A stretch of DNA of 40,154 nt from a virus (lineage: Duplodnaviria; Heunggongvirae; Uroviricota; Caudoviricetes): positions 1 through 40,154 of the IMG/VR virus record IMGVR_UViG_2531839523_000012; one strand, 5' to 3'. Shown piece by piece: positions 10,829 through 13,800 of the stretch; the stretch's first letter is position 1, and each line of letters begins with the position of its first letter. Position numbers: made by a program.

Positions 10829-13800
10829 GTTAGAGTCTTTCAGTCTGCGATGATGGGAAATCCCGGAGTGACTGAAAGACGTTTAAGTTATGAATGATCG
10901 CTTTTTTTGCAAAATTGCTGTGCAGAAATACTAACCTTCGGGCAGGCGATCATTCATAAGCACTCTGCTTTTATTCCGATTAACTGTGGGTGGTTTGTTG
11001 GATAGAGTGCTTCCCTTACTGTATATATCGTTTCGCCCGCTTTTGCGGGTTTTTCTTTTCAAATCCCTTTCATTTCTCAGTGTAAAACTACGCCATCCGT
11101 TATTTGCGGAGGTGAGGCTATGAAATCCATGGACAAAATTTCAACGGGCATTGCCTACGGCACCTCCGCAGGCAGTGCTGGCTACTGGTTTTTACAGTGG
11201 CTTGATCAGGTCAGTCCGTCACAGTGGGCTGCGATTGGTGTACTGGGGAGTCTGGTTCTGGGCTTCCTGACTTATCTGACAAATCTGTACTTCAAAATAA
11301 GAGAAGATAAGCGTAAGGCTGCACGGGGAGAGTAATTCAATGACACAAAAATATGAACTGATTGTGAAAGGGATCCGCAATTTTGAGAATAAAGTTACGG
11401 TAACTTTAGCGTTACGGGACAAAAAACGCTTTGACGGTGAAATTTTAGACCTGGACATCTCGCTGGACCGTGTTGAAGGTGCCGCGCTGGAGTTTTATGA
11501 GGCAGCAGCCAGAAGGAGCATCAGACAGGTCTTCCTGGATGTTGCTGCCGGGTTATGTGAAGGGGATGAGCAGTCACCGGAAAAGCGCCCCATAATTTTA
11601 GAGGCGCAGGGTGTGTGGATAACCTACAAAGGAAAACTGCCGGGAAGAATTACTGGTTCACTGAAGACTCCGCCGAAATGGTAATTTCACCAGCATATTT
11701 TTCTTCCAGTAATACCGCCAGCCACTTGAAAGAATTTTGTTGTTGCTGGGACCATTTGGGGTTGAGTGATTCAAGCTGGAGCGATGCCAGTGTTGGTTGC
11801 ATTTGTTCCTTGGGAATTGAGAATGCCAGATATGAAAATGCGACAGTAAGGGCATTTACATCATCCCGAAGCTTGGAAATGCAGTCGAGCAACTCCTGTA
11901 GAGAAATGGTGCTATTGTCCATAAACAATCCTCTCTATTGTATTTAACTATTCCTTGCCTGATTCAACAGGCCGGGACAGATAAACATATCCAGGGTTCA
12001 GAAACCGATAAATCCTGATAAATATCCATGAGCGCAAAAATCAAATACGGCCTGTCAGCTGCTGTTCTGGCGCTGATTGCTGCAGGCGCGTCTGCTCCTC
12101 AAATACTTGACCAGTTTCTGGATGAAAAAGAGGGTAACCACACTACGGCATACCGCGATGGTTCCGGTATATGGACCATCTGTCGTGGTGCCACAATGGT
12201 GGATGGTAAGCCCGTCATACCGGGAATGAAGCTGTCGAAGGAAAAATGCGACCAGGTTAACGCTATTGAACGTGATAAGGCGCTGGCATGGGTGGAGCGC
12301 AATATTAAAGTACCACTGACCGAACCACAGAAAGCGGGTATAGCGTCATTTTGTCCCTATAACATTGGCCCCGGTAAGTGTTTCCCGTCGACGTTTTATA
12401 AGCGGCTGAATGCCGGTGATCGTAAGAGTGCATACGAGGCGATTCGCTGGTGGATAAAAGATGGTGGGCGCGATTGCCGCATACGTTCAAATAACTGCTA
12501 TGGACAGGTTATTCGTCGTGACCAGGAAAGCGCATTAGCCTGTTGGGGGATAGATCAGTGAGCAGAGTCGCCGCGATTATTTATGCTCTGGTTATCTGCA
12601 TCATCGTCTGCCTGTCGTGGGCGGTCAATCATTGCCGTGATAACGCCATCGCCTACAAAGAACAGCGTGATAAAAAAGTCAGTGAGCTGAAGCAGGCGAC
12701 CGCCACCATTACTGACATGCAGCAACGCCAGCGTGCTGCTGATGTACTCGATGCTAAATACACGAAGGAGTTGGCTGATGCGAAAGCTGAAAATGATGCT
12801 CTTCGGCGCAAGCTTGATAATGGTGGTCGGGTGCTCGTCAAAGGAAAATGCTCTGTGCCATCCTCAGCCGAAACCTCCAGCGCCTCCGGCATGGGCAATG
12901 ATGCCACCGTCGAACTCTCTCCAGTTGCTGGACGAAACGTTCTCGGTATCCGGGACGGAATCATCAGAGACCAGACAGCACTGAGAACGCTTCAGGAATA
13001 TATCAGGACGCAATGCCTTCGATGATAGCGATAATTTTACTCATCATCCTTCACATCTGGCTCTGTAGACAGGGTGGTGATCACTTCTGGAGTGAATCCA
13101 GATTAAACATCTCATTGCTGATGCTTGAAGTTGAGCATCTGGCGCGCGGTAAGGGGCTGCGTTGAAATAAGAGCCAGTCATTACAAATACCAGGATTTAG
13201 CCTCGTATTCGCGGGGCTTTTTATTGCCATTACAAAAGCCACTCCCTACAGAGTGGCTTTGATAATGGCTTATACCCTACACGGGATAACTTAACTGATA
13301 TCCCTTTTAACGGATAAAGGTATTCAAGCCTGACACATCATGCGCTGTATCGTCGCCGTATTCCCGTATTAACAGAGACCGTAGCCCGACGGGGAACTCC
13401 TTCTGCGAGAGTGTGCGGGAATAATCAAAAACGATGCACACCGGGTTTTTACCGCGTTTATGGTTCGCGGGTTTGTCCCTCATGCTCGCCAGTCCTGTGC
13501 GGGGGTGGAAGAAACAGGATACTCACACAGATTCTTGTGGGCACGATGCTATTCCTTTCTGGATTATCCCGATGCCATTCATGCAAGGCGCTGTATCAGA
13601 CGTTCGTCATGGCTGTCAGGCTGACGGGTCCTCCCGGTGGGGTGGCCTGCCACGGGGCGGGAGCGTCGCGGAAAAAGGCTAGTTTTTGCATTTTTATCGG
13701 CCACCATCATCTTTGCATCTTATTGATTATTAATGTTATTTGTTTTTTGTATGTCGAATTGAGTGTTTTTTGTTCGACATCGAACGCGTTTTCTTAAAGT

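Follow-up and report, generated by a model that had tools for sequence, protein, structure and literature searches.

Introduction

Why should two small genes that run towards each other, with overlapping 3' ends, lie between the holin gene (S) and the endolysin gene (R) of a phage lysis cassette? We address this question for record IMGVR_UViG_2531839523_000012, a sequence of 40,154 nucleotides (nt) that is taken as a whole (the window; coordinates are window positions unless another locus is named) and that, from the gene order read from its open reading frames (ORFs) and profile matches, is a lambdoid Escherichia prophage. The forward gene (11340-11684, plus strand) encodes a YdfR-family protein (DUF1327) of 114 amino acids (aa), and the reversed gene (11650-11922, minus strand) encodes a protein of the phrog_2411 family, most likely of 90 aa, which RefSeq lists as WP_000370546.1, 'hypothetical protein'. 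The two form a widespread accessory unit of the phage-21-type lysis regions of Escherichia lambdoid prophages. Relatives of the reversed gene recur in several slots of the late operon as convergent pairs with forward genes whose products carry a tail motif.

An initial annotation, made from the sequence alone, had described both ORFs, and both are present, with a 3' overlap of exactly 35 nt; it had also taken adjacent holin and endolysin genes to be the normal state, and had recognised neither family. A gene between S and R is in fact the rule in phage-21-type cassettes, not an anomaly, and ydfR holds this place in the Qin prophage of K-12 as well; both genes are already catalogued in databases, under DUF1327/YdfR and phrog_2411. 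What seems undescribed is the convergent pairing, together with the composite build of YdfR, in which a DUF1327 N-domain is joined to a partner-like tail. We propose that the pair is one inherited convergent module with opposed expression of its genes, mutual binding of their products and a target in RNA metabolism, and give this package as a whole a probability of about 0.45. Few uncharacterised prophage genes of E. coli are as common as ydfR and the reversed gene, and the pair is also carried by Shiga-toxin (Stx) phages, beside the genes of toxin release. If the link to RNase E and the pairing are functional, they would point to a control of host RNA decay that the phage encodes, switched between lysogeny and lytic growth; if they are not, the gain is one of annotation, namely a corrected start and the correct strand for the reversed gene.

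The forward gene, ydfR

Membership in DUF1327 was judged by whether the protein, across the full length of the domain, exceeds the gathering threshold of Pfam. The 114-aa protein scores 142.7 bits against PF07041, for which the cut-off is 25 (E 4.2e-42), with residues 1-112 aligned to profile positions 1-92 of 93; it also matches phrog_406 (E 2.6e-67) and bears the RefSeq name 'YdfR family protein'. Its start codon lies 4 nt past the holin stop, and the Shine-Dalgarno sequence GGGGAGAG, 7-14 nt upstream, falls within the last codons of the holin gene, whose 3' end harbours the ribosome-binding site of ydfR, so that ydfR is probably translationally coupled to S. The same gap and Shine-Dalgarno sequence, along with the gene order essQ-ydfR-rrrQ in Qin, where ydfR overlaps rrrQ by 4 nt, establish that ydfR is read with the late operon. 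The ratio of nonsynonymous to synonymous polymorphism (pN/pS) is 0.45 for ydfR.

The product is basic (isoelectric point, pI, 8.7) and soluble, with a maximal 19-residue hydropathy of 0.69 where the holin reaches 1.72. It consists of an N-domain of three strands plus a helix (residues 1-76; 11340-11567, plus strand) and a conserved C-terminal module (residues 79-114; 11574-11681, plus strand); in the AlphaFold2 (AF2) model the strands span residues 5-14, 18-27 and 34-43 and the helix residues 50-73, at a predicted local distance difference test (pLDDT) of 58 overall and below 50 in the tail. The best-conserved part of the family is the tail motif GKLPGRITGSLKTPP (residues 98-112; 11631-11675, plus strand), in which the family alignment has I104 and T105 invariant and G106, L108, K109 and P111 nearly so; the most conserved segment of that alignment reads ...IILEAQ.VWITYKGKLPGRITGSLKTPP. 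In some YdfR-family proteins of 169-196 aa (P0138 and P0161) part of the DUF1327 N-domain is tandemly duplicated.

RNase E is acted on by phage proteins such as T7 gp0.7, T4 Srd and phiKZ Dip. In the one functional study of YdfR that we found, the K-12 protein is reported to bind the N-terminal, catalytic half of RNase E in two-hybrid and co-purification assays, its residues 1-72 are sufficient for the binding, and RNA co-purifies (PMC13232886). When it is overproduced few transcripts are altered and growth is unimpaired; the same study cites a genetic screen in which ydfR was important for envelope integrity (PMC13232886). The K-12 and window proteins are 80% identical across residues 1-74, and by sequence comparison the N-domain of the window protein is the orthologue of the RNase E-binding part. 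K-12 YdfR is encoded in the same slot, between the holin gene essQ and the lysozyme gene rrrQ; its C-terminus, however, is different, helical and without the ITGSL tail, and no reversed gene follows it.

The reversed gene

Taken mechanically, the minus-strand ORF spans 11650-11928 and encodes 92 aa from its first TTG (11928). The full-length phrog_2411 match (E 4.7e-59) aligns residues 3-92 with positions 1-90 of 90, the RefSeq coding sequence is 273 nt long, and the Shine-Dalgarno sequence GAGAGG (11930-11935) stands 7 nt before an ATG at 11922. The gene therefore most likely starts at that ATG and encodes 90 aa, not 92. The initial annotation was right on the 114 aa of the forward product, and its length for the reversed product is most likely to be shortened by two residues.

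Among 18-22 distinct alleles the pN/pS ratio is 0.38 in the 90-aa frame against about 0.9-1.06 in four other frames, and the reversed ORF is genuinely coding, under moderate purifying selection. A plus-strand ORF in the wobble-aligned antisense frame (11615-11947, 110 codons) gives a still lower ratio of 0.27 and is open in most Escherichia alleles. It was rejected as the true gene: alleles L077, L094 and L097, and likewise all the distant homologue loci, have stops in it, whereas the 90-aa frame is open throughout. The same wobble-frame artefact appears at S (0.24 vs 0.17) and at R (0.17 vs 0.09), and the case illustrates that dN/dS by itself can choose the wrong strand.

The 90-aa protein has 63 close homologues. 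An exhaustive hidden Markov model (HMM) scan of 1.84 billion representatives gave 18 matches to the family, among them proteins of 81-97 aa at 30-45% identity; the distant relatives have in common the pattern ELL..I..LR..VN.L..AF.YL.F....E....TI.AL.FES.N, and each matches phrog_2411 independently (E 1e-9 to 1e-19). When the family profile was run against a larger collection it returned 136 matches, of which the named ones belong to Enterobacterales (Escherichia, Shigella, Citrobacter, Atlantibacter, Yersinia, Serratia, Sodalis, Chania, Gibbsiella and Acerihabitans) save for two Pseudomonas-labelled records, for which mislabelling or contamination is the probable cause.

The protein is soluble and acidic, with a pI of 4.4 and no membrane segment (maximal 19-residue hydropathy 0.88); its AF2 model (pLDDT 71.8) consists of helices at residues 8-17, 22-35, 38-52 and 59-77. 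A Foldseek search of this model gave no fold assignment, the best hits having E values of 1.4 in PDB and 0.33 in BFVD, and sequence searches of both proteins against PDB chains returned nothing meaningful. Pfam has no match for the reversed protein and nothing beyond DUF1327 for the pair, PADLOC gives no defence match, and literature searches by accession, PHROG identifier and lysis-cassette moron turned up no paper that deals with the reversed gene.

Recurrence of the convergent pair in other prophage lineages

There are six or seven prophage lineages in which the context of a phrog_2411 gene can be read, and in each the gene stands tail-to-tail with a forward gene of the late strand, the two overlapping by 7-47 nt. 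All the distant prophage relatives are reversed relative to the late genes and convergent with a small forward ORF. Five of the lineages have a forward product with the C-terminal tail G-x4-5-(I/L)(T/F)G(S/D)(L/I)-x2-P, which YdfR shares. The pair occupies different slots of the late operon, namely between S and R, before the holin gene, between gpM and gpL, between gpI and gpJ, and before the terminase genes.

In the Atlantibacter type the order is gpM, a 71-aa gene (...IKGNIFSDQIFGDLKKPPSY), the reversed relative and gpL, and locus L108 has gpM, a 60-aa gene and the reversed relative. Yersinia has gpI, a 71-aa gene whose product ends in EKITGSLFAP (...GELYSEKITGSLFAPLSAHPSE), the reversed relative and gpJ. 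In Citrobacter freundii a 63-aa gene (MTLEQRVEILE...NGETRNEKITGSLRAPIKL, ending EKITGSLRAPIKL) is followed by the reversed relative and the holin gene. The partner in L104 is a 62-aa ORF upstream of the terminase genes that the gene caller missed (...IKGGQLRYKRLTGDILIPLES), and that in L102 is an 85-aa gene with the coiled-coil part only. Common to the partners are an N-terminal TLEQRVxxLE coiled coil and the tail; both have a counterpart in the alignment with the final 36 residues of YdfR (SPEKRPIILE...GKLPGRITGSLKTPPKW). At the sequence level the last ~35 residues of YdfR are thus similar to small proteins of the type 'coiled-coil plus ITGSL-tail' found in other enterobacterial prophages.

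This resemblance was examined by motif and by HMM rank. Within the last 25 residues, the motif [IL][TF]G[SD][LI] occurs in 1 unrelated ORF among 598 background ORFs, the 8 other matches being YdfR or partner ORFs; it was present in four of the six partner lineages then known, and the Citrobacter partner, found later, is the fifth. An HMM of the YdfR tail, run on 926 ORFs, ranked the Yersinia partner first and placed the Atlantibacter-type partners in the top nine. Conversely, an HMM of four non-Escherichia partners, run on 1088 ORFs, ranked the long YdfR of PhiR5_1 first (E 2.8e-4), YdfR of the window second (E 0.12), YdfR of Stx2-86 third (0.21) and the L102 partner fourth (0.47). The recurring tail-to-tail pairing with a tail-bearing partner, in different slots, argues for one inherited convergent module.

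In PhiR5_1 (L003 1660-2295) and in the 183-aa YdfR forms P0158, P0172 and P0180, a coiled coil (IESRIEKLECYIAELKK) follows the ITGSL tail; this coiled coil is matched (E 2.8e-4) by the one at the N-terminus of the small partners, so that the order of the two elements is opposite to that in the small partners.

The variety of slots also bears on lysis timing, which the initial annotation had suggested and according to which one or both proteins would modulate the S21 pinholin or the SAR endolysin, as an antiholin or endolysin regulator. The position between S and R and the probable translational coupling of ydfR to S would fit such a role, as would the screen that implicated ydfR in envelope integrity (cited in PMC13232886) and the persistence of the S-ydfR-reversed block when R is replaced (see below). 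Neither protein, however, has a membrane or signal segment, the distant pairs at M|L, at I|J and before the terminase genes lie in tail-gene clusters or otherwise away from the lysis genes, many cassettes function without the reversed gene, and overproduction of K-12 ydfR has no growth or lysis phenotype (PMC13232886). Related prophages very commonly carry both genes, and none carries them with an assigned lysis function. We regard a role in lysis timing as very unlikely.

Variation of the slot after ydfR and distribution of the reversed gene

All YdfR variants diverge right after the conserved core (...KTPP). A first variant continues with ESQP and a stop (116 aa) and has no reversed gene; a second, that of the window, continues with KW and a stop (114 aa) and is always followed by the 90-aa reversed gene; a third carries an extension of 100-155 residues, after which comes one of two other reversed small genes. 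The last is seen in Stx2-converting phage 86 (gp05/gp06) and in PhiR5_1, which have the same order of S, a YdfR core ending ...ITGSLKTPP, a reversed small gene and R; their YdfR has the 100-155 extra residues, and their reversed proteins (86 and 104 aa) are dissimilar to the 90-aa protein. That the three reversed genes found after ydfR might be distant homologues of one another was considered and is unsupported by BLASTP and hhalign.

Of 5426 complete E. coli genomes, at least 4262, about four fifths, contain DNA resembling ydfR, at 8049 places and often with several copies per genome; it also occurs in 101 phage records, most of them from Stx phages, H-19B and BP-4795 among them. The 90-aa gene is found in 1125 of the same 5426 genomes, about one fifth, and in three phage isolates (Chlobot, vB_EcoS-783R2 and phiSTEC1575-Stx2k). 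In 80 IMG/VR loci the alleles of S and Rz are mosaic, yet the gene keeps one invariant arrangement with respect to ydfR, S and R, and the same arrangement is seen in the 1125 genomes. In phiSTEC1575-Stx2k and similar Stx phages the S-ydfR-reversed block is kept and R has been exchanged for a different lysis cassette, the joint of the replacement being the start codon of R. In the phages L087, L088 and L114 (the last being phiSTEC1575-Stx2k) this second cassette, at ~650-2320 in L087, consists of two holin-family genes and an M15 peptidase gene, which gives holins of three families in a row and no SAR endolysin after the reversed gene.

The reversed gene is present or absent between otherwise similar cassettes, and its G+C content (0.44; 0.38 in the spacer upstream of it) is below that of the window (0.505). 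It behaves like a moron-type accessory gene. Classical Hendrix-type morons, such as lambda bor and lom and HK97 gp15, are likewise extra genes between conserved late genes, present or absent and of lower G+C; they differ in having the orientation of the late operon and a recognisable promoter and terminator, whereas the reversed gene is opposite in orientation, overlaps its neighbour and has no consensus promoter that we could find. The moron suggested in the initial annotation is thus supported in part, by sporadic presence, by low G+C and by the two unrelated reversed genes that use the same slot.

These observations would also suit two unrelated neighbours, an ordinary late accessory gene ydfR and an independent moron that entered a recombination-prone slot after its 3' end; the proteins would then not interact and the overlap would have no regulatory meaning. 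Each gene is found without the other (ydfR by itself, the reversed gene next to a decayed ydfR or as a single chromosomal gene), two unrelated reversed genes have entered the slot as well, the junction falls exactly after ...KTPP in all variants, as a recombination joint would, and the tail similarity is statistically weak for any single sequence. Against this, the pairing recurs in other operon positions and genera among relatives only 30-45% identical, where DNA homology could not have steered recombination; five of the forward genes carry the tail, and the top four of 1088 ORFs in the partner HMM search are all YdfR or partner ORFs. Taken together, unrelated neighbours without interaction or regulation are a possible but doubtful explanation.

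The distribution also bears on a toxin-antitoxin (TA) module, also raised in the initial annotation, with YdfR as a toxin neutralised by the protein or an antisense RNA of the reversed gene. Like type I and type II modules, the pair consists of two small adjacent genes with products of opposite charge (pI 8.7 and 4.4), and the antisense overlap of a convergent pair could give type-I-like or type-III-like control. Yet overproduction of YdfR leaves growth unimpaired (PMC13232886; the K-12 allele, not that of the window), neither Pfam nor PADLOC gives a TA or defence profile match, and the genes converge and are not co-transcribed. Each often occurs alone: thousands of genomes have ydfR without the reversed gene (at least 4262 against 1125), co-occurrence is not obligate, and the reversed gene survives beside a decayed ydfR. 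A TA function is therefore scarcely credible.

In one lineage ydfR is reduced to a remnant of 23 codons (MQITFSGKLPGRITGSLTVPPEC) and the reversed gene is intact. A prophage with a decayed ydfR (L092-L094, ~1089-1623) has a ParE-like/ParD-like toxin-antitoxin pair just downstream of the endolysin gene, so that elsewhere in this cassette, in an adjoining slot, a true TA module can be found. Outside prophages, a 92-aa phrog_2411 relative (L106 4001-4279) lies between dinI and bssS, a position conserved in Serratia-like genomes, and many of the Serratia, Chania and Gibbsiella proteins among the profile matches are relatives of this chromosomal type. The dinI-bssS copy suggests that the family came from the host or that a copy was domesticated long ago beside an SOS gene.

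Overlap and expression signals

The coding regions overlap by 35 nt (11650-11684), which hold the last 11 codons and the stop of each gene, and this overlap is retained in 80 of the 80 IMG/VR loci. Upstream of the reversed gene lies a 105-nt spacer (11923-12027, minus strand) that holds the Shine-Dalgarno sequence GAGAGG. Blocks of the spacer are kept among alleles of 76-100% protein identity, and the spacer accompanies the reversed gene when R is replaced. A scan for consensus sigma-70 promoters upstream of the reversed gene found none above threshold in the window or in three other lineages. Two sub-threshold promoter-like pairs lie in the spacer, TTGAAT (11967-11962) and TACAAT (11942-11937) separated by 19 nt, and TTTATC (12012-12007) and TATGTT (11989-11984) separated by 17 nt.

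On the other side, 43-69 nt past the stop of the reversed gene and inside ydfR, a hairpin GCGCCUC-N9-GGGGCGC followed by UUUU (11581-11607, minus strand) is present in both the minimum free energy and the centroid folds, with a z-score for the region of only -1.4; it is a possible weak terminator of the reversed transcript. A stronger equivalent stands downstream of the Citrobacter relative (L118 3347-3374). Judged from these signals, independent transcription of the reversed gene is plausible. On the late strand, the three non-Escherichia loci scanned have a strong intrinsic-terminator-like hairpin just past the pair (L099 3873-3856, L112 2849-2833 and L118 2904-2883), and none was found at that place in the window. 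With such hairpins past the pair, the transcript of the forward partner in those three loci would run antisense across the whole reversed gene before it ends. Antisense regulation, as the initial annotation had suggested, is plausible, and the convergent overlap recurs with the distant relatives.

The reversed gene might also, by itself, be a lysogen-expressed conversion gene, serving for example superinfection exclusion, defence or anti-defence, with a target other than YdfR. Many phage-encoded inhibitor proteins are small and acidic, as is this product (pI 4.4). The orientation against the whole late region, the low G+C and the present/absent distribution among cassettes are in line with conversion, as is carriage by the isolated or inducible phages Chlobot, vB_EcoS-783R2 and phiSTEC1575-Stx2k. 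No match to the gene was found in PADLOC or Pfam, nor a structural match in PDB or BFVD; there is also no consensus promoter, and a conversion gene acting alone leaves the recurrent tail-motif partner unexplained. We consider this explanation unlikely.

A proposed convergent module

As an inherited convergent module, the pair would work as follows. Synthesis of the forward protein would be confined to late transcription. Expression of the reversed gene would require late transcription to be off, the state of lysogeny and of the early period after induction, and head-on late transcription, together with RNA pairing across the overlap, would silence it. The acidic, helical 90-aa protein may be the cognate binding partner or the antagonist of the basic tail-bearing protein. 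In Escherichia the forward half of the module would have been fused to the DUF1327 domain, and through the N-domain the unit would act on RNA metabolism of the host (RNase E or RNA) rather than on the envelope or lysis, for which it would be dispensable.

A bolder version, which we advance as improbable, would make the phrog_2411 and 'ITGSL-tail' proteins an undescribed lysogeny/lytic convergent switch module of enterobacterial temperate phages that touches RNase E. The acidic product made in the lysogen would neutralise the tail protein, whether the prophage's own (from leaky late transcription) or that of a superinfecting relative; silencing at induction would free YdfR for RNase E or RNA and so shape the stability of late mRNA, and the Escherichia module would have captured an RNase E-binding DUF1327 domain.

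Several observations weigh against the inherited module. The tail is short (about 11-15 residues), its single-sequence E values are weak (0.12-2), and BLASTP of YdfR against the small partner proteins finds nothing, so that the case for a shared tail is made by the motif and HMM-rank tests. Among the seven partner lineages, L102 has no clear motif and L108 only a loose resemblance. Confidence in the YdfR model is low (pLDDT 58, and under 50 in the tail), and the K-12 YdfR that was assayed has no tail and changed few transcripts when overproduced. Tail-bearing YdfR is common without the reversed gene (the 116-aa form), the reversed gene is intact beside the 23-codon remnant of ydfR, relatives of Serratia type and Sodalis type are solitary chromosomal genes (for example in the order dinI-[gene]-bssS), and the promoter scan described above was negative.

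The surrounding lysis cassette and other features of the window

The antiterminator Q gene (9340-9720) is followed by four tRNA genes (10519-10828, plus strand) that lie between Q and the holin gene, and by a terminator-like hairpin (11035-11050). S (11120-11335, plus strand) encodes a class II holin of the phage 21 S-type (PF04971, Phage_holin_2_1; E 1.4e-35), with a hydrophobic segment (KD19 1.72) and a pN/pS of 0.17. R (12028-12561, plus strand) encodes a SAR-type phage lysozyme (PF00959; E 2.2e-23) with a hydrophobic N-terminal stretch evident in the translation and a pN/pS of 0.09. After R come the Rz spanin gene and then the terminase and tail genes.

E. coli strain 510016 matches window positions 11100-12100 at 100%, and RefSeq annotates the match as 'class II holin family protein | YdfR family protein | hypothetical protein | lysozyme'. 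In this strain (L001 7294-9800) the endolysin gene is truncated by ISEc62, an element of the IS21 family, followed by IS1; the prophage copy is lysis-defective, yet ydfR and the reversed gene are intact.

A second reversed accessory gene of the late-promoter region lies between Q and the tRNA genes (9804-10250, minus strand). This ORF of 148 aa, hypothetical in RefSeq (WP_001038608.1), has a lipoprotein-like N-terminus (LLLSATIISGC) and no match in Pfam or PADLOC. Farther downstream, two overlapping ORFs (28771-29832 and 29772-32240, plus strand) divide the tail-tip gene J between them, the first with the FNIII-A_GpJ domain and the second with the remaining J domains, which suggests a frameshift that perhaps leaves the prophage defective in tail assembly, or else a sequencing error.

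An Rfam scan near the lysis region returned the four tRNAs only. They are CAT, Lys-TTT, Thr-TGT and Gly-TCC, and related phages have three of the four; the first (CAT) is read as Met by ARAGORN and as Ile by RefSeq, the latter presumably as a lysidine-modified CAT.

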